Below are positions 1,433-61,676 of a stretch of DNA of 64,000 nt, piece after piece. Position 1 is the stretch's first letter, and each line of letters starts with the position of its first letter. A model generated the notes under the pieces. The model was given only the letters and a program-made list of their open reading frames with translations. It had not been told where the DNA came from and made no database searches. The DNA is from Candidatus Saccharimonadota bacterium (GTDB taxonomy: Bacteria; Patescibacteriota; Saccharimonadia; Saccharimonadales; 2-12-FULL-41-12): assembly GCA_022842995.1 (NCBI GenBank), contig JALHOM010000003.1:12659-76658 (forward strand), written 5' to 3'. The position numbers and the translations under genes were made by a program.

Positions 1433-2182
1433 ATCTTATGTACAAGGACTGTCCTTGTACATAAGATTGTTTATAAGATTTATTTTATTAGCTATCCGCA
1501 GGCAGTCCTTTTAAATCGCTCCTAATACGTAAATAACCGCTATGAAATTCCTCTATTTCTCTCGGACTATCAAAGGATCCTTTCCACCATTCAGGTTCCA
1601 GCCAATCAGATTTTTCTTTGCCGACATAATTTCGATAACTTGAATAGGGATAGTTCTTAAATCCTTCTTTACTATCTGCTCCATTTAGATGGATATACCT
1701 AACGATATGCCACCAGTAAGAATCATCTTCAATACATGAGCCTTTATATCTACCCTGGAACAATACCCCACTTCGTTTGTATTTTTTATTGAAATATACA
1801 CTATATCCTGTAGCTACTGACCGCATAAGCCCTGATATTCCTCGATCTGAATATTGATATAAGAGCAGGTGGAAATGATTTGGCATTAAACAATACGCCC
1901 TCAGTTCAACCTGCTCATAAAAATTCTGCCGCCTATAGGTATACCGCTCGGCACACGAGAATAAGCTACTGTCTACTTTTTCAATCTTTTCCGGGGACAT
2001 AAGTGCGTATTTGAGTAAATTTAGAAATACAGAATAGTCTTGATCGTCCTCAAAAATAATTCTTTTATCGACTCCACGATTGTACACATGCCACATCTGA
2101 TCTGGCGCAAATTGTTTTAGAGAATTCCTGCTAGGCATATCATTACCATACTGTACAAGGACTGTCCTTGTACAGTATGGTA
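1433..2182 (-). mobile_element. IS200/IS605-type or REP/RAYT-type unit: Y1 transposase gene flanked by two hairpins with the same core
   Basis: Perfect palindromes at 1433-1467 (35 nt) and 2144-2182 (39 nt) share the core tgtacaaggac-t-gtccttgtaca and bracket ORF 1488-2138. Confidence 0.7.
1488..2138 (-). CDS. HUH/Y1 transposase, IS200-like / REP-associated tyrosine transposase (RAYT)-like
   Basis: 216-aa ORF with HUH motif (CLMPNHFHLLL) and a downstream YIHLN tyrosine region. Size is typical of the Y1_Tnp family. Confidence 0.8.
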   Translation of the reverse strand: MPSRNSLKQFAPDQMWHVYNRGVDKRIIFEDDQDYSVFLNLLKYALMSPEKIEKVDSSLFSCAERYTYRRQNFYEQVELRAYCLMPNHFHLLLYQYSDRGISGLMRSVATGYSVYFNKKYKRSGVLFQGRYKGSCIEDDSYWWHIVRYIHLNGADSKEGFKNYPYSSYRNYVGKEKSDWLEPEWWKGSFDSPREIEEFHSGYLRIRSDLKGLPADS

Positions 2183-14055: not shown

Positions 14056-14080
14056 GACTCGAATCCCAAAATTAACATTT

Positions 14081-14194
14081 CATTTTATAACTCTTGGCTC
14101 ATCAGTGGGATGTGGCCAAGTGGTAAGGCACCAGGTTTTGGTCCTGGCATTCGGGGGTTCGAATCCCTCCATCCCAGCCAAGAGTTATAAAATG
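14081..14194. repeat. perfect 19-bp inverted repeat bracketing the intact tRNA-Gln
   Basis: cattttataactcttggct (14081-14099) is the exact reverse complement of agccaagagttataaaatg (14176-14194). The right arm includes the tRNA 3'-terminal AGCCA. Confidence 0.9.
14106..14180 (+). tRNA. tRNA-Gln (anticodon UUG), CCA encoded
   Basis: Manual cloverleaf: TGGGATG/CATCCCA acceptor, GCCAAGTGGTAAGGC D arm, CCAGG-TTTTGGT-CCTGG anticodon arm, CATTC variable loop, GGGGG-TTCGAAT-CCCTC T arm, then GCCA. Close to E. coli tRNA-Gln. Confidence 0.95.
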
Positions 14195-14213
14195 AATCCC
14201 TCATCCCCAGCCA
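14194..14213 (+). other. orphan tRNA-Gln 3' fragment (part of T loop, T-stem 3' strand, acceptor 3' strand, GCCA)
   Basis: gaatccctcATCCCCAgcca compared with the tRNA 3' end gaatccctcCATCCCAgcca. Its acceptor strand ATCCCCA complements TGGGGAT of the two upstream 5' portions, not the intact gene. Confidence 0.75.
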
Positions 14214-15859: not shown

Positions 15860-16810
15860 CTACATCGTAACGATCACATTCCCTACCTTCTTGCCGGTGT
15901 CGACTCTTGAGTGGGCTTTTGATATATCATTAATGGTATAAATACTGTCAACAACCGTAATCAGCTTGCCCTGCTCCATGAGCGAGAGGAGTAGTTTGAT
16001 ATCTTCCGACTTTTCGGTTGCTGGACCAGCAAAAATCTTGCCACGAGCACGTATTGTATCGACAAGATTTGCAACAACCAAGCCAGCTCTGCCATTCACC
16101 CCTACCAGACTTTTGGCACCGGCTATTGAAATATTGCCGACAGCATCTAACACGACGTCAAATTTTTTGCCGAGCTTCAGAATATCTTGTTGTTTGTAGT
16201 CAATTACTTCCTGGGCGCCGATCTTTTTTACTAATTGTCGATTAGCGCCACTTGTAACAGCCGTGACGTGAGCACCGAAATATCGCGCTAGTTGAACGGC
16301 ATTTGTACCAACAGCTCCAGAAGCCCCGTTTACCAGCACGTTGTCACCCTTTTTTACGGCCAGTTTGTCCCTGACATAAGACAATGCTGTCGTACCGCCA
16401 AACAACATTCCGGCTGCGTCCTCATGGCTGACTGAATTAGGCTTATGGGCAATACTTTTTATCGGCCTCGTTTTCAAATATTCAGCATGGGAACCCATTT
16501 TGATTCCAGTCATACCGCAGACTTCGTCGCCGACATTAAAGTTCGCGACATTATCGCCAACTTCTTCCACTACTCCAGAGTAAGTGCCGCCGAGTATCTT
16601 TAACCTCGGCTTTGTGATGCCAAATATTAGCCTCGCCGGAAGACCGAAGCCGGCCGGAAATCTCGCGGCGCGAATTCGTGAATCCGCAGCAGTTACCGAT
16701 GTAGCGACAACACGAATTAAAATCTCGTCGTCGTTAATTTTTGGCTTGACCACCTCTTGGATCTGCAAGACTTTGGGGTCGCCATATTTCGTTACCACAG
16801 CTGCCTTCAT
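15860..16810 (-). CDS. NAD(P)H-dependent quinone oxidoreductase / zinc-type alcohol dehydrogenase superfamily (MDR)
   Basis: 316 aa, GroES-like N-terminus and Rossmann GASGAVGTNAVQLA. Confidence 0.85.
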   Translation of the reverse strand: MKAAVVTKYGDPKVLQIQEVVKPKINDDEILIRVVATSVTAADSRIRAARFPAGFGLPARLIFGITKPRLKILGGTYSGVVEEVGDNVANFNVGDEVCGMTGIKMGSHAEYLKTRPIKSIAHKPNSVSHEDAAGMLFGGTTALSYVRDKLAVKKGDNVLVNGASGAVGTNAVQLARYFGAHVTAVTSGANRQLVKKIGAQEVIDYKQQDILKLGKKFDVVLDAVGNISIAGAKSLVGVNGRAGLVVANLVDTIRARGKIFAGPATEKSEDIKLLLSLMEQGKLITVVDSIYTINDISKAHSRVDTGKKVGNVIVTM

Positions 16811-16856
16811 GGCTTGAGTATAACAAACCTTTCTTACTAATCCCCACTCGTTATCA

Positions 16857-17095
16857 GGAATTGGAAATTGGGAATTAGGAATTAGCAGACATGAGTTATG
16901 AGATATGAGTTAAGAGACAAGAGTAGCTCCTAGCTACTAGATGCTAGCGGCTAGCTACAAACTCCTACTCCTTTCGCCGCAGGCGAATCTTAACTCATGA
17001 CTCTTAACTCATGACTCTTTTTAGTCTTTAGTCTTTAAGCTTTAAGCTTTAAGCTTTCAGCTTTTTTCTAATTCCTAATTCCCAATTTCCAAATA
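16857..17095. repeat. ~240-bp composite palindromic element built from short tandem-repeat modules
   Basis: Perfect 25-nt terminal inverted repeats ttggaaattgggaattaggaattag (16861-16885) / ctaattcctaattcccaatttccaa (17068-17092). Inner modules are (atgagtta)n, (tagctac)n and (ttaagct)n, with complementary modules on the other arm. Confidence 0.85.
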
Positions 17096-18574
17096 TCATA
17101 TTCGCCTATGCCACCGAATAATCACATCCTCGACCTCAGGTCTGATGGCTTCGACGAAACCAACTTTTACAATGTCGCCCACGTGTAAATGAAAGTCACT
17201 GTTTAGTTCTGCTGGTTTGCCGTCTTTTGTAACCGAAATTATACGTACCCCTTTCGGCAAACCGAGCTCGTTCAGCCGAGACCCTACAACCGCGTGTCCG
17301 TCTTGAACAGTAAATTGGATACTTGCTCTCTTTCGCGGGTCTACCGATCGAGCGGCCGCAATCGCAATCTGGTCGAGCAAACCGAGGCGCGTAGCAATTT
17401 TTTCTAGGACTGCGCCCTGAAACAGTGCCGAAACCAATACAACGAAAAAGACGATATTAAAGATCTTATTGGCATCATCCACGCCCGACGACAGCACAAA
17501 AGTCCCTAACACGATCGGCACCGCCCCTCGTAGCCCAGCAATACCGAGAAAGAATTGCTCCTTCCGCCCATACTCAGAGAACAATAACGACACATATACA
17601 GCCACCGGCCGTACGACAACCGCCAGAAGAACCGCGAGCACTACTCCACCTATAGCAATTACGGGGAGTTGCGCTGGGTTAACAAACAGCCCCAATGCAA
17701 CGAACATCACTACTTGAGCCAAAAAAGCAACGCCTTCATGGAACTGGGTCAAGTGACTTCGGTACCTTGAAGGCGTACTACCAATAAATAACCCCACAAG
17801 GTAGACGGCCAAAAATCCACTTCCATCGATCACTTGAGTTAGCCCAAAGGTTATCGCACAAATTCCCAGAGACACGACCGGCGCGAACGACCCAATAGTT
17901 TTTGGTAAATGCGCCAAGATTCTTACCGCAATATAGCCGAATACCAGACCGGCAACCAAGCCGATACCGAGCTGCTTGGCAAGTAATTCCAGCATCTGCA
18001 CCATTCCGTAATCGGACAAGGTCAACCAAGATAGTAACCCAATAGTCAGGGCGATCGCCATGGGGTCATTGATGCCAGATTCGGCCTCTAAAGTTCGAGC
18101 CAGTTTTCGCTTGATTTTAGAAGACCTAAGACTCGCAAACACCGCCGCTGCATCTGTCGAAGACACAACCGCGCCCAGTAAAAGCGCATAGATAACCGGT
18201 AAATCAAAGAGGAAGTACGCGGCAGCACCCACCAAAGCAGCAGTAATCAAAACCCCCAGTGTACTTAACGCAACGGCCGGCAAAGCAACCCCTCTCAGAC
18301 GGCGCCAAGACGTCGAAAGCCCGCCTTCAAACAAAATCAAGACCAAGCCAGCTGTCCCAATAATCTGCGCTACACTGGCGTCGCTAAACTCAATCCCTCC
18401 CGGGCCGTCACTGCCAAGTAGCATGCCAAAGATGAGGAAAGCCACGAGTGACGGTATGCCGATTCGAGAAGCCCCAAAAGCAATCAACAGACTCAGGACT
18501 AACAGACCTCCGGCGGCCAAAAACAACATATCAATTTCCGCCGATGCCCCAAACCGAGTAAAAATCAAATCCAC
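17096..18574 (-). CDS. monovalent cation(K+/Na+)/H+ antiporter (CPA1, NhaP2-like) with C-terminal TrkA-C/RCK_C domain
   Basis: 492 aa, ~11 TM segments plus a soluble C-terminal domain (VGSRLNELGLPKGVRIISVTKDGK...GDIVKV). Confidence 0.85.
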   Translation of the reverse strand: MDLIFTRFGASAEIDMLFLAAGGLLVLSLLIAFGASRIGIPSLVAFLIFGMLLGSDGPGGIEFSDASVAQIIGTAGLVLILFEGGLSTSWRRLRGVALPAVALSTLGVLITAALVGAAAYFLFDLPVIYALLLGAVVSSTDAAAVFASLRSSKIKRKLARTLEAESGINDPMAIALTIGLLSWLTLSDYGMVQMLELLAKQLGIGLVAGLVFGYIAVRILAHLPKTIGSFAPVVSLGICAITFGLTQVIDGSGFLAVYLVGLFIGSTPSRYRSHLTQFHEGVAFLAQVVMFVALGLFVNPAQLPVIAIGGVVLAVLLAVVVRPVAVYVSLLFSEYGRKEQFFLGIAGLRGAVPIVLGTFVLSSGVDDANKIFNIVFFVVLVSALFQGAVLEKIATRLGLLDQIAIAAARSVDPRKRASIQFTVQDGHAVVGSRLNELGLPKGVRIISVTKDGKPAELNSDFHLHVGDIVKVGFVEAIRPEVEDVIIRWHRRI

Positions 18575-41164: not shown

Positions 41165-41289
41165 TTGATTTTTCCCTCCTAAAATATACGGGATTAATTG
41201 CTATTACCTGACATATAACGCAGGTACCACCCAAAACGTTACAAAAATCTCCCCAATGGCAAATCAAAAACCCCTTAACTACCACAACC

Positions 41290-41334
41290 ATTTTGCAAGG
41301 ATAAACCCTGCAACAGGGTTTATCCTTGCAAAAT
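41290..41334. repeat. perfect 21-bp-stem palindrome
   Basis: attttgcaaggataaaccctg-caa-cagggtttatccttgcaaaat. Confidence 0.9.
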
Positions 41335-41431
41335 GACGCCTTAAAAACATGTAAATAAATTACGCGATCGTGGATTTTATTTACATAGAGGTCGCACCTC
41401 TGTAGTTGGGCGGACAAACAGAGGTTACCGC

Positions 41432-41479
41432 CATGTAAATGTTGTACGCGATCGCGTACAACATTTACATGTTTTTTTT
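41432..41479 (+). terminator. perfect 40-nt palindrome followed by T8 (terminator-like, no annotated upstream + gene)
   Basis: catgtaaatgttgtacgcga|tcgcgtacaacatttacatg, then tttttttt (41472-41479). Confidence 0.6.
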
Positions 41480-41808
41480 GGCGGTTAATTGACGAGGGTA
41501 ATCGGGTACTATAAGGCGACCTAACAGGGGTGCAGCAAGAAAATCGGGGTATTTTGTATTGGAATCTGGGGATTATTTGTAACAATTTGTTATGTATCTC
41601 GTTATATATAAAGTAAGCCCTGTTCTCGATTCTCGGTAATCGAACTTCATCACCGAAATAGAACTATCGGATTTGATAGACTAGAGTTATGAGTTATGGC
41701 GTGCCAGCAATCGGCCAAATGCCGAACTATCGTCAAGCCGGGAGCACCTCAACAGCACGTAAGGGAGCATGGGTTATAAGAAAAAGACCCAAAAAACACA
41801 ACTAAGAT

Positions 41809-47303: not shown

Positions 47304-47981
47304 ATGACCAAAACAACAGAGCAGAAACGAATTGCAAGAGAAACAATAGGGCAACATCTCGACCGCGTCCATATACTTACTGAGAATGGCGGTTTCGAGG
47401 CTTCAACTACTTTAGGAAAAGATACTTTAGAGCGACTCAAACTAGCTAGTAAGGCCATCGCTACGCTTCTTAGAGCTCCTCAACTTCCTTCAGAAAGAGT
47501 TTTAATTTCACCTGATCAAATTACACACTTTGGACAGGATTCCCTACGCCTATTCTATCTTTCTCAATCAGGATTGCATTTGGGAAAAAGCAGTGGCCCA
47601 CAGTTTAGTCTCTGCCCATCTGGAGCAATACGATTTCGGTCAGTCGAGCATGCGCTTTCACCACCATTAAATGGCACTTTGCCGCCACAGAGCGCAGTCA
47701 TCCCTCCGGCTAAAATATTGCAGCAATGTATCGACGGCGAGAACATTTACCTAGGAACCCACGCAGTCTATTATTATATGCCCCGCCAAGGACACCCGAG
47801 AGCCACACTAGAAGCTCGACCCTCTCTGAGAACCGAATCAGAAAGAAACTTAAGATACCTATCCGCCGCATCTGTCACCGCCCAAACCTTCCATGAAGTA
47901 TATACTCGCCTGCTTGAACACCCCGATTTCCCTTACGATACGTTCGTTGACCTCACCCCTCCCAAACCCATAAAAGAATAA
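47304..47981 (+). CDS. orphan array member 9 (225 aa)
   Basis: ORF. RIARETIGQHL, TLERLKLASKAIATLL, and C-terminal helix LRYLSAASVTAQTFHEVYTRLLEH. Lacks the Trp. Confidence 0.55.
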   Translation: MTKTTEQKRIARETIGQHLDRVHILTENGGFEASTTLGKDTLERLKLASKAIATLLRAPQLPSERVLISPDQITHFGQDSLRLFYLSQSGLHLGKSSGPQFSLCPSGAIRFRSVEHALSPPLNGTLPPQSAVIPPAKILQQCIDGENIYLGTHAVYYYMPRQGHPRATLEARPSLRTESERNLRYLSAASVTAQTFHEVYTRLLEHPDFPYDTFVDLTPPKPIKE

Positions 47982-47989
47982 AGATTAAA

Positions 47990-48098
47990 GAGAGCTACGA
48001 GTCTTAAGCTATGAGCTTTGAGTCATAAGCTATGAGTTATTGTAAAAGGGCTATGAGTCGTAAGATATGAGTTATGAGTTAAGAACTTTGAGAATCTA
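47990..48098. repeat. short-tandem-repeat block of the (a)tgag(t/c)(t/c)a(t/a) type
   Basis: aagctatgagctttgagtcataagctatgagttat...ctatgagtcgtaagatatgagttatgagttaagaac. Same word family as 16890-16915, 41684-41698, 51153-51186 and 52150-52180. Confidence 0.8.
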
Positions 48099-48108
48099 GT
48101 CAGCTGGG

Positions 48109-48148
48109 GCCGGCTTTCGCTGGCCAGCGAAGGATAACTGATGAAAAA
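48109..48148. repeat. 40-nt direct repeat copy 1 (contains palindrome TTCGCTGG/CCAGCGAA)
   Basis: gccggctttcgctggccagcgaaggataactgatgaaaaa, identical to 48898-48937. Confidence 0.95.
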
Positions 48149-48239
48149 CCAAATATATTAGAATACACTTGACATTTCTTGTCAAGACATGCTACTATTG
48201 CTATATCACCATGACGGGCTACCCTAAAGTGAACGTGCT

Positions 48240-48809
48240 TTAGGTTATGCCCGTCTCTTTTTGTCTCTTGTCTTTTTCCAATTTCTTTTTATTAACGGAT
48301 ACATAATCCATATAATCAACAAATTTTGACAATAAATTAGAGTAACGATGCTTGTTCGGAACAACTAGTGCTCCTAGTTTTTGAACACCTTCAAGATGTT
48401 CACATAAACTCAAAAAATCACCATCGCCAGATACAATAACTGCTTTATCGTAATTCTCAATTTCTTTAGCTGAAGCGTATAAAACCAAGTCAGTGTCTAC
48501 ATTGCCTTTGACGCGTATCCTTCCATCTGTATCTTTGAAGGATGTTGTGGGTTTTAGTACAACTATATAGCCTATTCGTTGAAGATAGGCGTACAAGCTT
48601 TCCCTTCCTGGCATATTACCTATAAATAAGAAGGCGGTTTCTACTTTGTGCTTATCTTTTAAGTACTGCCTGAATTTTTTAAAATCAAGTTCCCAGCCAG
48701 AATAAATTTTCTTACCTTTATGAATTACGTCATTGCTCACACCCAGATTCAGATTCTGACTGTCAATAAAAGCATATACAACTGGCCGTTTTTTATCTTT
48801 CACCATCAA
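48240..48809 (-). CDS. NYN-domain (LabA/DUF88-like, PIN-fold) putative ribonuclease
   Basis: 189 aa. VYAFIDSQNL...AFLFIG...NVDTDLVLYA...AVIVSGDGDF matches the NYN acidic-residue pattern. Confidence 0.8.
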   Translation of the reverse strand: MMVKDKKRPVVYAFIDSQNLNLGVSNDVIHKGKKIYSGWELDFKKFRQYLKDKHKVETAFLFIGNMPGRESLYAYLQRIGYIVVLKPTTSFKDTDGRIRVKGNVDTDLVLYASAKEIENYDKAVIVSGDGDFLSLCEHLEGVQKLGALVVPNKHRYSNLLSKFVDYMDYVSVNKKKLEKDKRQKETGIT

Positions 48810-48897: not shown

Positions 48898-48937
48898 GCC
48901 GGCTTTCGCTGGCCAGCGAAGGATAACTGATGAAAAA
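48898..48937. repeat. 40-nt direct repeat copy 2
   Basis: Identical to 48109-48148; the two copies bracket the NYN gene. Confidence 0.95.
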
Positions 48938-49850: not shown

Positions 49851-50624
49851 TCACAGTTGTATTAATTTTGGTCTTGACTTGGTATTTTTTACAGAGGTGG
49901 CACCAGAACGAGCTTGTGGATAAACGTGGTCATTTTTAATCGATGTTTTTGCGTCGGCTCGTTTAGTTGGCGCTATATGTTGCGTAGCGGTCTTGGATTG
50001 TCGCGCTAGACCGTGTGGCTTCGGTCCAAGTTGCGGGTGACGTGGTATGGTCGGGCCCATCATTTCTTCGGCAGTACGACGCCTTTGCGTATGAGCGTGC
50101 CGTTCAACCAACGGGCTTCGACCAAGGGCCATTAACGCCATGAGCTTAACGGGTCGTACTTGATCACGCCGTAAACCGCGTCTCACGAACTGCGCTCCGG
50201 CCTTGACTGACTCTACTGCCTCGTGACCATGATTCCTACCGTCTCGAATACTCTCGACGATTGCTGTTACTACACCTACAACCAATAGCAAATACGTATA
50301 GACGGCCAGGGTGTCAGTCATCTCGTTTTCGGGGTCAACGGCCGACAAGCCCGCTACAGCGAGCAACGTTATCAGGGCTAGCTTAAAAGTCGTTCGACTA
50401 TCTATCTTGAAAATAAGCGCCAGCACAAAGTACACGCCTATAGCGATCTCCCCTACCTGCTGGACCTGCAACAAGCTACTGACCGAGCTCAAGACCGCGA
50501 TCATCAGTACAAAAAATGCCAGACTGATGTAACCCGGTAAATTCCGGAAATACCAAACTAAGCCAATGCTCTCCAAACGAGATTGCTTATTTGATTTTAC
50601 TCTTTTGCTTTTCTTGAATGCCAT
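49851..50624 (-). CDS. membrane protein with basic C-terminal tail (257 aa)
   Basis: ORF with 4 TM segments followed by an Arg/His/Pro-rich tail. Confidence 0.5.
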   Translation of the reverse strand: MAFKKSKRVKSNKQSRLESIGLVWYFRNLPGYISLAFFVLMIAVLSSVSSLLQVQQVGEIAIGVYFVLALIFKIDSRTTFKLALITLLAVAGLSAVDPENEMTDTLAVYTYLLLVVGVVTAIVESIRDGRNHGHEAVESVKAGAQFVRRGLRRDQVRPVKLMALMALGRSPLVERHAHTQRRRTAEEMMGPTIPRHPQLGPKPHGLARQSKTATQHIAPTKRADAKTSIKNDHVYPQARSGATSVKNTKSRPKLIQL

Positions 50625-50655
50625 TTATAAAATACTCGTTAACGCCTTGCTAGAA

Positions 50656-52629
50656 TTATTGGATTTTATAGAGTGCTATGGAATCGTCTTGATAGCTCTC
50701 ACTAAAGCTCGGTCGGCCGTCAAAGACGTCGTATTTCTGCCAATCGAACTCTTTGACCACTACTACGTATTCTATGCTATCTTCTTTCAGGACGTCCGCC
50801 AAGTTTTGCCGGAAAGCAAGATCGGGCAATACATCCTTCTCAAAGCGCATTACCGCCGAATCTTGAACGGACTCATTGAGCGCGCCCAGCTCGGGATTAC
50901 TACTCATCACCGCCGGATATCCCATAAACCTTGGCGCAGGATTCGCCACGACACCACCCGTAAACTCCATTGGCATATACAAATGCCAGGGCAAATACAA
51001 AACCTTGCCACCACGATATTCACGGTCCAATACCGACTCTACCTGATACCACCCTCTCGGGTAATCGCCAGTTTTTGGCCAGGCGGTTGGGTCGAGGAAG
51101 ATGCCCGGTACCAAAAATATTGGGACAAGTAAAAATACTGCCCAATATTTTTGTGAGTCATGAGTCATGAGCCATGAGTCATGAGTTTTTTGTTTTCCGT
51201 AATCTGTTTTCCGTAATCTTGTATTACTGCCCACCGATATCTTTTTGCTGCTACTTAATTTTCTACTGACTACGGATAACTGATGACTGATAACTGACTT
51301 ATTGCTTTGAGCAAATGCAAGCAAGCCGCAGCCCGCGAAGTAGACGTACGCCAATGCAATAAGTCCGGCGAATTTCTGAGGTTCACGGTAGCCACTAAAC
51401 AGCGGGATATGGTCGACCAAAAACTGGTTTAGTAGGCCGACTATTGGAGCCTTTGTACCTGCCGCGAGAACGAGTCCAGCCGCCAACAAACTAGCGAAGA
51501 TTTTGAAGTAAAATCGCATGTGTTTATAGGACCAAAATGCCCCCTTAATAACCAAGTAAAGCAGCACCGCAAGTGGGAGCCACCACCACCAATGCGTATC
51601 TTGAGGCAAGAGGTACAAATTGCCGTTGTCCGCCCAAAAACCCTGCAATCGTAATAGGTTGCCGAATATTCCTATCCCGTCGCCAGTTGTTGCGTAAGCG
51701 GTTAGATCATCGACGCCAAATGAGCTGATCGTGTCCGCTGTTTGCCCTTTGCCGAGGATGAGGGGCAGGAGCCAATAGGAAGATAGCAGGAGCCATGAGA
51801 TTTGAGTCATGAGATAAGATTTAGCTGCGCGCTTGACAGTATCTTTATTAGCACGCTCGTCAATAGCCCACCACATAAAGACTATGAACGTCATGATGAC
51901 GGAGATGCCGAGGAAGTGAATGGACAATACGCCGGTTAAGGCCAGCAGTCCGCCGAGCGTTAGCCATTGTTTTCTGGTGGGGTTTTTGAGCAGTTTTAGG
52001 GTAGCTAGGAGGATGAATGGGAGGAGGGCGTAGCCCATTAAAACGGCCCATTGACCTGTCATGAAGCGAGTATAGACGAAATTATTTAGCAGATATAAGG
52101 CTCCAGCAAATATCGGGACTATCGCAATGGGCCGTGTAGCTTCATTTGAGACATGAGTCATGAGATATGAGTCATGAGCTTTTTGCTGCTTATCTTTTAT
52201 CTTTAATCTTTTATCTTTTATCTCGAGTCTTTCTTCTTTTGTCTTTCCTCTTTGAACTTTTGCATGCACTCTTTCATCTGCGGTCTTTGTTTTTTTCTGC
52301 TTGTCCTCCGGAGCCTTGGCGAAGGAGGATGAACCGTTAACTGTATACTCGATCATTTTTTTGGCACCAATAAAAATGGTCGCTAGTATTGCTAAGAGCA
52401 AAAGCCTCTGCACCACCCAGGCCGGCATAATCTTGGACAAAAGATACAGTAAATACTCGAACCAAAAAATAGACGTAACCGCCGTCGGTGCCGGCATATC
52501 CGGGACAAAAACCATATCCGGCACAAAGATATACCCCGGAACAAAAGATAACTGCATCACTAAAAACACCAGAGATATCAAAGCAACTTTTGCCCATCGT
52601 GATTGCAGGAAGTTACTTCGTTTTAGCAT
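50656..52629 (-). CDS. polytopic membrane protein (657 aa), likely envelope-glycan assembly; carries in-frame tandem-repeat insertions
   Basis: About 12 TM segments plus a C-terminal soluble domain. Hydrophilic loops are encoded by repeat DNA at 51150-51305, 51790-51830 and 52148-52300. Confidence 0.65.
   Translation of the reverse strand: MLKRSNFLQSRWAKVALISLVFLVMQLSFVPGYIFVPDMVFVPDMPAPTAVTSIFWFEYLLYLLSKIMPAWVVQRLLLLAILATIFIGAKKMIEYTVNGSSSFAKAPEDKQKKTKTADERVHAKVQRGKTKEERLEIKDKRLKIKDKQQKAHDSYLMTHVSNEATRPIAIVPIFAGALYLLNNFVYTRFMTGQWAVLMGYALLPFILLATLKLLKNPTRKQWLTLGGLLALTGVLSIHFLGISVIMTFIVFMWWAIDERANKDTVKRAAKSYLMTQISWLLLSSYWLLPLILGKGQTADTISSFGVDDLTAYATTGDGIGIFGNLLRLQGFWADNGNLYLLPQDTHWWWWLPLAVLLYLVIKGAFWSYKHMRFYFKIFASLLAAGLVLAAGTKAPIVGLLNQFLVDHIPLFSGYREPQKFAGLIALAYVYFAGCGLLAFAQSNKSVISHQLSVVSRKLSSSKKISVGSNTRLRKTDYGKQKTHDSWLMTHDSQKYWAVFLLVPIFLVPGIFLDPTAWPKTGDYPRGWYQVESVLDREYRGGKVLYLPWHLYMPMEFTGGVVANPAPRFMGYPAVMSSNPELGALNESVQDSAVMRFEKDVLPDLAFRQNLADVLKEDSIEYVVVVKEFDWQKYDVFDGRPSFSESYQDDSIALYKIQ
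51150..51305. repeat. in-frame modular short-tandem-repeat block inside CDS
   Basis: (gtcatga)n at 51153-51186, (ttttccgtaatctg)x2 at 51192-51219, (ctga[tc]aa/ctgac)n at 51263-51301. Translated as ...SHQLSVVSRKLSS...RLRKTDYGKQKTHDSWLMTHDSQ. Confidence 0.85.
52148..52300. repeat. second in-frame modular short-tandem-repeat block inside CDS
   Basis: gagacatgagtcatgagatatgagtcatgagc, then (cttttatct)n, then (tctttc)n. Translated as KTKEERLEIKDKRLKIKDKQQKAHDSYLMTHVS. Confidence 0.85.
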
Positions 52630-59674: not shown

Positions 59675-60540
59675 ACATTACCTCCTCTTGGCGGAACTGA
59701 ATTCGATTTGCCCCTTATTGCGCCCTTAAGGTACCCTGCTGCGCCCGCAAGATACTCTAAGGATTTCATTACCAGCATGCCTAACGATTCTAGTGGGTTC
59801 GCGAGAAGCTTGTTGGGGTTCCGAAAAAATAATCTAAATCGAGCCACAGGCCCCGCATCGTCCATCAGCTTCGAAGTTGTGTTAGAGGCAGACAAGTACT
59901 GCTGGGCATGCTGGGCGTAGTAATACTTTTTCTTGAGGGTTTTATATAAATTAATTTTGCCTTCATTGTGATAAATCAAATCATCAATGCGCACGATCTT
60001 GCCGATTTCTCTTACTCTCCGGCTCAAGTCCCAGTCTTCCCCACTTACTAAGTCCGTATTAAATCCACCAAGTTTTTGATAAGTTGCTTTTTTAAAAAAG
60101 CGAGCTGCTTCTATAGCGTCGTTTCCGATATAATATGACCTCTCCAGCTTTTTGCACTGCGCCCAAAAGCCTATTCCAAATGACTCCTCAGGGATAATAA
60201 CTCCTTCGTTTTTGGCACTTTTTGCCATAGCACTTACGCAAGACTCAACCACGCCATCGCTAAGCTTCATGTCTGAGTCTATAATCGCCACGTATTCGCC
60301 AGATGCTTTATCTACCCCAAGGTTTCTTTGGGCGGAGCGTTCGGGGCCATGGTTGAAGACTTTTTTGGTAAACTTACGAGCGATCTTTTTGGTGTCGTCG
60401 GTTGAGTCACGATCTACGATCATTAATTCAATTTTTTTATACGTCTGGTCGGCTATGGACTGCAGACAATCTTCTAGAGTTCCCGCGCTATTCCGCGTCG
60501 GGACAATCACTGAAACCAGAGGGTCTTTGGTCCTGCTCAC
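59671..60540 (-). CDS. family 2 glycosyltransferase
   Basis: VSVIVPTRNSAGTL, VDRDSTDDT, IDSDM, GEDWDL. Start set to the GTG at 60540, which forms a GTGA overlap with the upstream stop (the track ATG at 60606 would overlap by 70 nt). Confidence 0.8.
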   Translation of the reverse strand: MSRTKDPLVSVIVPTRNSAGTLEDCLQSIADQTYKKIELMIVDRDSTDDTKKIARKFTKKVFNHGPERSAQRNLGVDKASGEYVAIIDSDMKLSDGVVESCVSAMAKSAKNEGVIIPEESFGIGFWAQCKKLERSYYIGNDAIEAARFFKKATYQKLGGFNTDLVSGEDWDLSRRVREIGKIVRIDDLIYHNEGKINLYKTLKKKYYYAQHAQQYLSASNTTSKLMDDAGPVARFRLFFRNPNKLLANPLESLGMLVMKSLEYLAGAAGYLKGAIRGKSNSVPPRGGNV

Positions 60541-61676
60541 GCGGTTTCCTTTAGTACGTTTTTGAAATCTTTGTAGCATTGTTCGAAGGTGATTTGCTTG
60601 CTCCATTGCCAGGCGTCTTGTTGCAGTCTTTTATATAACGAGTCGTCGGTCAGAATTGTTACAATATTTTTGGCTAAATCTTCCGGCGTCGACACGCTTA
60701 CCAACCCAGTTTTATAATGCCGCACGCTGTCACGCAGGCCATCGCTGTTATATACCACCGCTGGCGTGCCTTGGCTATTTGCCTCGGTCACCGTCAGTCC
60801 CCAGCCTTCTTTGACCGCTGTTTGTAACAATATGTGCGCTTTGCCCATAAGCTCGACTTTTTTGGCCTCACTCACCCGACCGAGATATTCTATGGCGTCT
60901 TTGTGTCGACTAGCTTCTACGTATGCGAGGACCTTTTTGCCGTACGCAGTATTGGCTCCACCGCCGGCAATCTTCATGCGTAGTTCTGGCATTTCGTCCC
61001 GCGCAATCTCAAAGGCTTTGACCTGCGCCAAAGTTTGCTTCATAGCCCGCAGAGCACCCAAACTCAAAACCGTCGACTGAGAATACTTCCCCCCCAATTT
61101 CAAATTTCTATTTTCTAATTTCTGAATTGGCTTAATGCCAATTCCCTCGGATATAATATGAATCTTGTTACCACGGAAGGTATAACGCATCAGATCTTTC
61201 TTGGTCGATTCACTGACTGTCAGTACCGTTGCCTTGGACCGAGACAGCAAAAACGTCGCAGCCGGCTCTAAAATTCCATAGCCAATAATCGCAAGCGGCA
61301 ACGGCGCTTCATAAAACCAGATCTGCCGTGCTAACTGGTGATAAAACAAGATTGAACGTGTCTTTTTGCCCTTAAAAAACGGCGTGAAGTACGGCGCAGT
61401 ATTGACCGCCTCTATCACTACGTCGTATTTGCCACGACAATGCTTTATGAAATATGGCGCAGTTTTAAAAGGCTGAATATACCGGTTACCCTTTAACCGA
61501 ACAACATTTGCTCCATCGAGCTCCAGCTCTTCATGTTTACCCGAAAATGAAGCAGTAAGGATATCCACTTCGTGGCCATCGGCAATCTGGCGCTTGATAA
61601 TCTCGTGCATCACCAACTCCGCCCCGCCACTCTGGGGGTGCTCCCAATCCTTCCAGGTAACCCACAGAACTCTCAC
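60537..61676 (-). CDS. family 4 (GT-B) glycosyltransferase
   Basis: 379 aa; N-terminal GGAE motif region; C-terminal EGWGLTVTEANSQGTPAV (E-x7-E type). Confidence 0.85.
   Translation of the reverse strand: MRVLWVTWKDWEHPQSGGAELVMHEIIKRQIADGHEVDILTASFSGKHEELELDGANVVRLKGNRYIQPFKTAPYFIKHCRGKYDVVIEAVNTAPYFTPFFKGKKTRSILFYHQLARQIWFYEAPLPLAIIGYGILEPAATFLLSRSKATVLTVSESTKKDLMRYTFRGNKIHIISEGIGIKPIQKLENRNLKLGGKYSQSTVLSLGALRAMKQTLAQVKAFEIARDEMPELRMKIAGGGANTAYGKKVLAYVEASRHKDAIEYLGRVSEAKKVELMGKAHILLQTAVKEGWGLTVTEANSQGTPAVVYNSDGLRDSVRHYKTGLVSVSTPEDLAKNIVTILTDDSLYKRLQQDAWQWSKQITFEQCYKDFKNVLKETA

Follow-up and report, generated by a model that had tools for sequence, protein, structure and literature searches.

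A 64,000-nt stretch of contig JALHOM010000003.1 from a Candidatus Saccharimonadota bacterium, here called the window, carries at positions 16857-17095 a 239-nt spacer, E1, which on its sequence is a heptanucleotide tandem-repeat assemblage of the kind termed short tandemly repeated repetitive (STRR) sequences or long simple sequence repeats (LSSR), a class that is known but poorly understood. E1 is real and non-random, far beyond chance, the periodic signal being confined to period 7 and its multiples both within the element and window-wide. With moderate confidence we consider it an assemblage of heptamers generated by slippage and fold-back copying, bounded by selection and with a probable consequence for mRNA structure, and not itself a mobile element.

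The element is composed throughout of 7-nt tandem units, 34 of which follow consecutively in a single register counted from 16857. At period 7 the self-match is 0.66 (153 of 232 positions equal those of the previous unit) as against 0.20-0.27 at periods 3-6, 8-13 and 15, and none of 2000 shuffled sequences reached the period-7 value. Tandem Repeats Finder (TRF) identifies arrays of period 7 or 14 only, namely AGGAATT (4.3 copies), ATGAGTT (3.7), TAGCTCC (7.1) and TCTTAACTCATGAC (2.3), together with TTTAGTC (2.6), CTTTAAG (4.6) and CTAATTC (2.9). Adjacent units differ by zero to two substitutions, as in the series TCTTTAG TCTTTAA GCTTTAA GCTTTAA GCTTTCA, and a second drift series reads CTCCTAG CTACTAG ATGCTAG CGGCTAG. 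The first-pass annotation of this DNA had described successive modules of 7-9-nt repeats; the modules exist, but their unit is always 7 (or 14 or 21) nt. The same holds for the window as a whole, where repeat segments of periods 7, 14 and 21 number six, three and two, respectively; other periods from 4 to 22 give none, nor do shuffled sequences.

Read on the plus strand, E1 begins with array A (16857-16885; GGAATTG GAAATTG GGAATTA GGAATTA G), followed by array B (16887-16923; ATGAGTT ATGAGAT ATGAGTT AAGAGAC AAGAG) and by array C (16924-16972), about seven copies of TAGCTCC/TAGCTAC type. A central GC-rich hairpin at 16973-16987 (TTCGCC-GCA-GGCGAA) keeps the 7-nt register. Beyond it lie array B' (16988-17019), 2.3 copies of TCTTAACTCATGAC with internal matches of 100%, array D (17020-17067), in which two TTTAGTC units pass by stepwise drift into three of TTTAAGC, then TTTCAGC and TTTTTT, and array A' (17068-17092), which ends 3 nt from the stop codon of the adjacent antiporter gene. 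The perfect terminal inverted repeats noted in the first pass are present, 16861-16885 in array A matching the whole of A' in 25 of 25 nt, with identity ending abruptly on both sides. Such abrupt, perfect arms require an inverted copying step. A second, inner pair of arms is formed by 16887-16915 and 16988-17016, 86% complementary over 29 nt. The suggestion that the two halves are complementary module by module therefore holds for A/A' (100%) and B/B' (86%) only; modules C and D are each self-complementary, the former through TAGCTA, giving a local hairpin, the latter, of AAGCTTT type, through AAGCTT, and they are not partners of each other. The GGAATT words of the arms are confined to E1 within the window.

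An extended hairpin downstream of the antiporter gene had also been proposed, and predicted folds agree. For RNA of the sense (minus) strand the predicted free energy is -107.1 kcal/mol compared to -55.8 +/- 4.6 for shuffled sequences (z = -11.1), and for E1 as single-stranded DNA the z-score is -12.4. The predicted fold has a 25-bp perfect basal stem enclosing the B/B' stem and the local hairpins of C, the centre and D. No open reading frame (ORF) of 20 or more residues occurs within E1, and a consensus scan found no promoter-like site. Comparison with the Rfam covariance models gave no match at the gathering score or at E <= 1, so that E1 fits none of those structured RNA families. Terminator-like sites in 16500-17400 amount to one weak internal stem, where 0.9 would be expected.

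E1 is one of seven heptamer blocks in the 64 kb; two are intergenic, one lies over a stop codon and four occupy loops or linkers of two genes. The sequence ATGAGTNATGAGT, allowing up to two mismatches, occurs 26 times against 4.6 expected, and the sister blocks have many 10-14-mers in common. All the related blocks previously listed, at 41684-41698, 47990-48098, 51150-51305, 51790-51830 and 52148-52300, exist and we add one at 61093-61130. It had been overlooked that the third, fourth and fifth of the listed blocks lie within a translated gene and are not spacers. A small plus-strand array, GAGTTAT in 2.1 copies at 41684-41698, lies in the intergenic DNA preceding a gene of the sigma-70 family. 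Block E2 (47973-48098, plus strand) starts 6 nt before the stop codon of the gene at 47304-47981 and consists of AAGAAT/AAAGATT units, 21-nt (3 x 7) units of GAGCTAC GAGTCTT AAGCTAT and then ATGAGTT units. Block E7 (61093-61130, minus strand), of AGAAATT-type units, falls between the domains of a GT4 glycosyltransferase (60537-61676), in a linker that is 4-6 residues longer than in homologues. Among the blocks other than E1, clear inverted symmetry is restricted to 51154-51300 (78% over 27 nt).

The remaining three blocks reside in a minus-strand gene at 50656-52629 for a DUF6541/arabinofuranosyltransferase-like membrane protein (P0241) of 657 residues, whose homologues have 542-572. A single ORF spans all three, and the protein database entry is likewise one protein. 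An alignment of eleven DUF6541 sequences, nine of them Saccharimonadales homologues of about 550 residues, shows those nine to be colinear with P0241 on both sides of the blocks and to lack E4 and E3, which are thus insertions of about 62 residues after ...EYTVNG (insert 1) and about 50 residues after ...LAFAQS (insert 2). The nearest relative, P0242 (685 residues), has insertions at the same two sites. Given on the plus strand, E4 (52147-52300) comprises TGAGNCA (4.6 copies), TTATCTT (4.9 copies) and TCTTTCN units; E3 (51154-51300), in frame on the minus strand, comprises TGAGTCA (4.7 copies), TGTTTTCCGTAATC (2.1 copies), a spacer and GATAACT/GATGACT (3.3 copies). E5 (51794-51825) has CATGAG-type units in a transmembrane segment (…KSYLMTQISWL…).

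A (TGACTCA)n array on the coding strand is expected to place TGA in frame at every third junction. All of the in-frame junctions are altered (TCA-TGG, TCA-TAT or the end of the array), and TGA is kept in five of the six out-of-frame junctions. As the alteration falls at exactly the in-frame positions, the arrays must be translated, and selection has edited them. The AlphaFold model calculated on the same alignment has a confident transmembrane core (predicted local distance difference test, pLDDT, > 90 at residues 201-290), with insert 2 disordered (pLDDT < 50, residues 462-501) and insert 1 a moderately confident charged helix; the alignment is shallow and the model is supportive only. We considered whether the in-frame inserts are multiples of 21 nt and find this unsupported, insert 1 being about 62 residues (186 nt) with ambiguous alignment ends. 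The DUF6541 gene and the GT4 gene with E7 both lie in a cluster of GT2/GT4 genes.

The contig that encodes P0242 (L015), which differs from the window in both sample and assembly, carries heptamer arrays at the same three sites of its DUF6541 gene: AAAGATT (3.7 copies) at insert 1, TCATGGC (4.7 copies) at the site corresponding to 51794, and AGTCAGT (5.4 copies) with AGATTACGGAAAAC (2.2 copies) at insert 2. Apart from its array, insert 1 of the window is unrelated to that of L015, and the two versions of insert 2 differ by an insertion/deletion of 39 nt. The concern raised in the first pass, that such blocks could be artefacts of assembly, does not apply to the class, since they stand at the same sites in this independent assembly; the class is unlikely to be artefactual, E1 itself having been seen in one assembly.

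Heptamer arrays are also found in unrelated contigs. A scan of viral contigs for (ATGAGTY)3 gave 26 loci, several in sequences very rich in period 7, for example 19 arrays in 12.7 kb. Of 17 pairs of neighbouring arrays in these heptamer-rich contigs, 7 are inverted complements able to fold into hairpins; megablast against the plasmid collection matched none of the contigs, and their proteins are not similar to those of the window. When metagenomes were scanned for the E1 arm, exact over its 25 nt, 11 contigs of 37-63% GC came up. In each of the 11 it belongs to a plain (GGAATTN)n array of one orientation, packed between ORFs with gaps of 0-26 nt. None of these contigs reproduces the E1 interior or an inverted arm pair around a similar interior, and none encodes relatives of window proteins. 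Two contigs, L042 (1993-2134) and L043 (638-814), represent the same locus in two samples and have 20.3 and 25.3 copies of GGAATTN with different orders of unit variants, a natural length polymorphism in 7-nt steps in an organism other than that of the window. In another contig (L046), inverted arrays on the outside enclose about 30 GGAATT-type units, which resembles the architecture of E1. A vocabulary of words shared across phyla was considered as well. Words other than those used as queries are no closer to the window words than a letter-shuffled control, and given this negative result the general claim was dropped.

These properties support the assignment to the STRR/LSSR class. Head-to-tail 7-nt units beyond chance are present in E1, and several dispersed arrays, mostly in spacers and gene ends, are represented by the seven blocks. 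Copy change in unit steps, for which E1 itself offers a single allele, is seen at L042/L043, in another organism, with the remodelling between window and L015 pointing the same way. In most of the genomes examined by Mrazek (2007), as related in PMC4679880 and PMC4692102, heptamers are the most abundant class of LSSR, and the same accounts give polymerase slippage as the proposed cause. The origin of heptamer repeats, the reason for a 7-nt unit and their function are still open (PMC4679880, PMC4692102). A literature search gave no report of heptamer assemblages in Saccharimonadales, members of the candidate phyla radiation (CPR).

As portrayed in PMC4692102 and PMC4679880, the heptanucleotide LSSR and cyanobacterial STRR (Mazel 1990, Mrazek 2007) are, as here, tandem 7-nt units in mostly intergenic positions, with several words per genome, an excess at period 7 only and slippage as the proposed origin. 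What differs is the Saccharimonadales host, the presence of many short arrays of different words in one register, and the nested palindrome. The TAACTGA repeats of Beggiatoaceae, Cyanobacteria and Bacteroidetes (MacGregor 2015, PMC4679880) form mixed heptamer assemblages in spacers, vary by 7-nt insertions or deletions between strains and overlap stop codons. Repeats of that family in reverse orientation are translated as LSVISYQ (PMC4679880), and in the window GATAACTGATGACTGATAACTGAC / GATAACTGATGACTGATAAC reads KSVISHQLSV. However, TAACTGA is a minor word here, there is no preference for positions just upstream of start codons, and the window insertions are internal to a conserved membrane protein and not at protein ends. 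The arm word of E1, GGGAATT/AGGAATT, is one base from the GGGAATC of the GGGAATC/GGGGAYT repeats in Xanthomonas and Nostoc (Rehm 2015, PMC4692102), which are also intergenic, vary strongly in length among relatives and include some inverted pairs with stem-loop potential. A G-quadruplex needs four G3 tracts whereas the E1 arm has one GGG, and the perfect 25-nt mirror pair of E1, enclosing other arrays, sets it apart from the Xanthomonas and Nostoc repeats. E1 was judged in the first pass to be neither a clustered regularly interspaced short palindromic repeat (CRISPR) array nor a classical repetitive extragenic palindromic (REP) sequence nor a miniature inverted-repeat transposable element (MITE), and we concur. 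A CRISPR array has direct repeats of about 24-48 nt with unique spacers of similar length between them, whereas the 7-nt units of E1 are contiguous; the arms of E1 are unrelated to the REP-like palindromes that flank a Y1 transposase-like gene in the window; and a MITE is unlikely, as E1 has neither a second copy in the 64 kb nor a clean target-site duplication.

How might such an element arise? A 7-nt unit would be duplicated by slipped-strand mispairing and mutate, and the mutant would be duplicated again, leaving related words in one register. At least two inverted copyings, by fold-back or template switching on a hairpin-prone strand, would then account for the arms, an older event giving B/B' and a recent one the perfect A/A'. 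Arrays would grow until they met sequence under selection. Growth bounded in this way would explain why E1 abuts a native stop codon, and why the blocks in the DUF6541 and GT4 genes sit in loops and linkers, with the frame kept and every in-frame TGA lost. The origin by slippage or templated copying that was first proposed for this family is supported by the single register, the unit drift, the 20.3 versus 25.3 copies in L042/L043, the remodelling relative to L015 and the inverted arms. On a co-directional transcript E1 would form a hairpin of about 230 nt with a 25-bp perfect basal stem, which could block 3'-5' exonucleases and be cut by RNase III. It would thereby uncouple, separate or stabilise the antiporter message while encoding nothing.

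Several observations weigh against this explanation. The perfect mirror arms are beyond slippage alone, and fold-back copying is a step that we infer. The exact 25-nt arm recurs in unrelated contigs, which simple local slippage does not predict, although the 25-mer recurs largely because the unit has few variants (T[AG]G[GA]AAT). No U-tract follows the 25-bp stem, so E1 is not a canonical intrinsic (Rho-independent) terminator, in which a GC-rich stem-loop has a U-tract behind it on the transcribed strand. The hairpin is probably an mRNA processing or stabilising structure, a role we infer from the predicted fold. Look-ups of the exact antiporter, P0001 and dehydrogenase proteins returned nothing that would provide a second assembly of E1, and a scan of genome contigs for an 'empty' antiporter-dehydrogenase junction gave only Gaiellaceae relatives of 71-73% GC and Kangiella relatives.

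Insert 2 of the DUF6541 gene is a further difficulty. Across the gene as a whole the window and L015 are 64.7% identical in nucleotides, and the two repeat segments of insert 2 reach 93-95% with sharp borders; the conserved stretch is 51177-51311 in the window and 2018-2104 in L015. When identical codons were counted in windows of 25 residues conserved between both proteins, insert 2 gave the highest synonymous-site conservation in the gene (22 of 25, against a mean of 12.6 and a standard deviation of 3.0). The two repeat segments, 78% complementary, make up the arms of a hairpin that is predicted alike for both genomes (z = -3.5 and -6.0) and whose loop contains the 39-nt insertion/deletion. 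This conservation contradicts pure neutrality. Together with the pattern of arms and loop it points to a nucleic-acid-level constraint on at least some blocks. A function at the level of the nucleic acid may lie behind the conservation, or concerted evolution with further copies, or the recent transfer of a patch.

The strongest rival builds on this. The blocks would be selected nucleic-acid elements, either arrays bound by a regulator or structured hairpins acting in translational control, processing or termination, and the 7-nt period would be the footprint of the partner. We consider it unlikely overall, even though insert 2 is most conserved at synonymous sites, with conserved arms and a variable loop, and the hairpin z-scores are strongly negative. 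The words vary between and within blocks, and insert 1 is almost fully diverged between the same two relatives. Regulator binding has been proposed for the TAACTGA repeats (PMC4679880), heptamer repeats are reported to affect recO/recF expression in Nostoc (bioRxiv 10.1101/2022.06.06.494920), and the 'global regulatory elements' of Geobacter, four tandem heptanucleotides, occur within and between genes (PMC2700814). The blocks described here, however, are scattered over coding loops, 3' ends and spacers and take no shared position with respect to start codons, and the window encodes no evident candidate for a binding protein. Identical GGAATTN words do occur in genomes of very different GC; against this, the sharing of non-query words is not above the shuffled control.

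A bolder version, to which we give still less weight, regards heptamer assemblages as maintained hairpin elements that are written, copied or bound by sequence-specific machinery and are not slippage debris. The machinery might be an enzyme for single-stranded DNA that acts on hairpins, or else a regulator whose footprint is 7 nt. Were this true, its signatures would be the mirror arms of E1, the hairpin arms conserved at synonymous sites in the DUF6541 gene of two species, and identical GGAATTN/ATGAGTY words in genomes of 31-63% GC, and CPR bacteria would offer a minimal-genome system in which to find the machinery.

The in-gene arrays could instead be contingency loci, in which the gain or loss of one 7-nt unit would shift the frame and turn genes for envelope glycosylation on or off, with the intergenic E1 as a by-product of a hypermutable process. 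In neuO the 7-nt units are translated and only unit numbers that keep the frame yield protein. This phase-variable gene of Escherichia coli K1, with heptanucleotide repeats inside it (PMC13001214), is the precedent. The hosts of our arrays, a DUF6541 glycosyltransferase-like protein and a GT4 enzyme within the GT2/GT4 cluster, would suit such a role, as would the natural change of copy number in 7-nt steps. In neuO, though, the tract is long, perfect and at the 5' end of the gene; those in the window are internal, short and imperfect (4.6-4.9 units with 80-92% matches), which lowers slippage rates, and they have been edited to keep the frame open. The palindromic intergenic E1 is left unexplained, and we regard switching as improbable.

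Marginally less probable again is that E1 is a MITE or other non-autonomous mobile element bounded by its 25-bp terminal inverted repeats. MITEs have terminal inverted repeats and a size similar to that of E1, and the palindromic elements of Rickettsia insert in frame into genes, which bears comparison with the in-gene sister blocks of the window. The arms of E1 are perfect over 25 nt, the element is 239 bp, intergenic and has hairpin potential, and a Y1 transposase-like gene is present in the window. The sequence TATCA occurs near both ends, at 16852-16856 and 17094-17098. These copies are asymmetric, lying 4 nt and 1 nt from the left and right arms, and the right one overlaps the native stop codon, making a target-site duplication unconvincing. 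In addition there is no second copy of E1 in the 64 kb and the arm words occur at E1 only, the metagenome matches to the arm are always plain arrays of one orientation, the whole interior is a heptamer array in one register, and the Y1 gene has its own, unrelated palindromes. MITEs and the Rickettsia elements come as multiple copies of one consensus, and nothing of this kind is seen in the 64 kb, where the blocks differ in content and evolve in place. Least credible of all is an artefact of assembly or amplification. Repetitive and palindromic sequence is difficult for assemblers and E1 is known from one assembly, but homologous blocks stand at the same gene positions in L015, they leave the 657-residue ORF open with conserved domains on both sides, the units are irregular and not collapsed perfect copies, and the same types of array occur in many unrelated assemblies.

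E1 is flanked by two minus-strand genes. Upstream is a K+/H+ antiporter gene (Na_H_Exchanger and TrkA_C domains; 17096-18574), the C-terminus of which, ...RWHRRI*, is intact compared to homologues; E1 begins 3 nt past its stop codon. Downstream is a gene for a zinc-type dehydrogenase/quinone-oxidoreductase-like protein (15860-16810), with its start codon 47 nt after the element. The GC content of the window is 45.6%, and its source is an 85.6-kb contig of a metagenome-assembled genome; homologues of its BipA and DUF6541 proteins carry the names Candidatus Saccharimonadales or Saccharibacteria. The nearest antiporter homologues (58-61% identity) are found in different gene contexts and without heptamers. 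Relatives with 87% BipA identity have no heptamer blocks in 2 x 22 kb, and none are present in about 100 kb from BipA (87%) and antiporter relatives combined; we caution that this absence is weak evidence since the blocks are clustered even within the window. The BipA gene of the window is also present in run SRR28154522, where the Logan contig covers BipA only. Among species-representative genomes the closest antiporter relatives are those of Gaiellaceae (Actinomycetota) metagenome-assembled genomes of 71-73% GC (L001, L002). Their identity in the best-matching segment is 54-71%, about as close as the Saccharibacteria homologues (58-61%), and this pattern of similarity may reflect inter-phylum transfer.

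Other long perfect stems occur in spacers of the window. A tRNA-Gln gene (14106-14180) lies within a perfect 21-nt inverted repeat (14079-14099 / 14176-14196), the right arm of which overlaps the 3' end of the tRNA; the repeat may act as a stem in processing of the precursor. Upstream of the sigma-factor gene there is a perfect 22-bp stem with a 3-nt loop (41289-41335) and, in the same spacer, a perfect 20-bp palindrome followed by T8 (41432-41471) that is terminator-like. This cluster of palindromes (41289-41476) also has a 50-nt arm pair, 76% complementary. Given the tRNA-Gln repeat and the palindrome with T8, such stems are evidently tolerated or used here.

The Y1/HUH transposase-like gene (1488-2138, minus strand) encodes 216 residues matching Pfam Y1_Tnp with E = 1e-7. 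Its best NCBIfam match, below the cut-off, is 'REP-associated tyrosine transposase' (RAYT), and HFH and YIHLN motifs are present; a search of PDB sequences with the protein gave no match. The gene is flanked by perfect palindromes of 17-19 bp with a common core TGTACAAGGACTGTCCTTGTACA, which occurs at 1439-1461 and 2152-2174 only and to which E1 has no similarity. In a relative (L014) pheS and yajQ are adjacent with a 52-nt spacer, which indicates that the 750-bp IS200/RAYT-like unit is an insertion in the window lineage. Like E1, REP sequences and REPINs, which have RAYT as their transposase, are intergenic, palindromic and hairpin-forming (PMC3116915), and the RAYT-like unit is at 1433-2182 in the window. 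E1, however, consists of tandem repeats, has one copy in the window where REP sequences come in many dispersed copies, and has no sequence in common with the palindromes flanking the Y1 gene. The possibility that it is a REPIN of that gene is excluded by sequence, the palindromes being unrelated.

Further features adjoin the sister blocks. A perfect 40-nt direct repeat (GCCGGCTTTCGCTGGCCAGCGAAGGATAACTGATGAAAAA; 48109-48148 and 48898-48937) brackets a minus-strand NYN-domain gene (48240-48809) and may mark an inserted cassette or a duplication. The repeat holds a perfect 16-nt palindrome and a 13-mer, GGATAACTGATGA, that is also present at 51274-51286. A core TTCGC...GCGAA common to the blocks was considered and set aside; there are four matches against 0.9 expected, two of which belong to this 40-nt repeat and not to heptamers. 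At 48160-48200 a promoter motif of sigma-70 type, TTGACA and TACTAT spaced by 18 nt, coincides in part with a hairpin of TTGACA/TGTCAA, with no plus-strand gene in the following 2 kb or so. Adjoining E3 in coding sequence, 51112-51153 is a perfect 13-nt inverted repeat (CAAAAATATTGGG ... CCCAATATTTTTG) that encodes ...VFLLVPIFLVPG.... A plus-strand ORF of 188 residues (50566-51132) lies opposite the conserved C-terminal domain of the DUF6541 gene, has no Pfam match and is probably a shadow ORF and not a gene.

The window adds a case of heptamer repeats in a Saccharimonadales genome, which is small and has little DNA to spare. The anatomy of E1, with one register, drifting words and nested mirror arms, argues for slippage combined with inverted copying. 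There is direct evidence that an essential-looking membrane protein can carry such arrays in frame while selection removes the stop codons. The hairpin of insert 2, conserved at the nucleotide level far beyond its protein context, is a testable lead to a nucleic-acid-level role. There is also a warning for annotation, in that repeat blocks which look intergenic may be translated.

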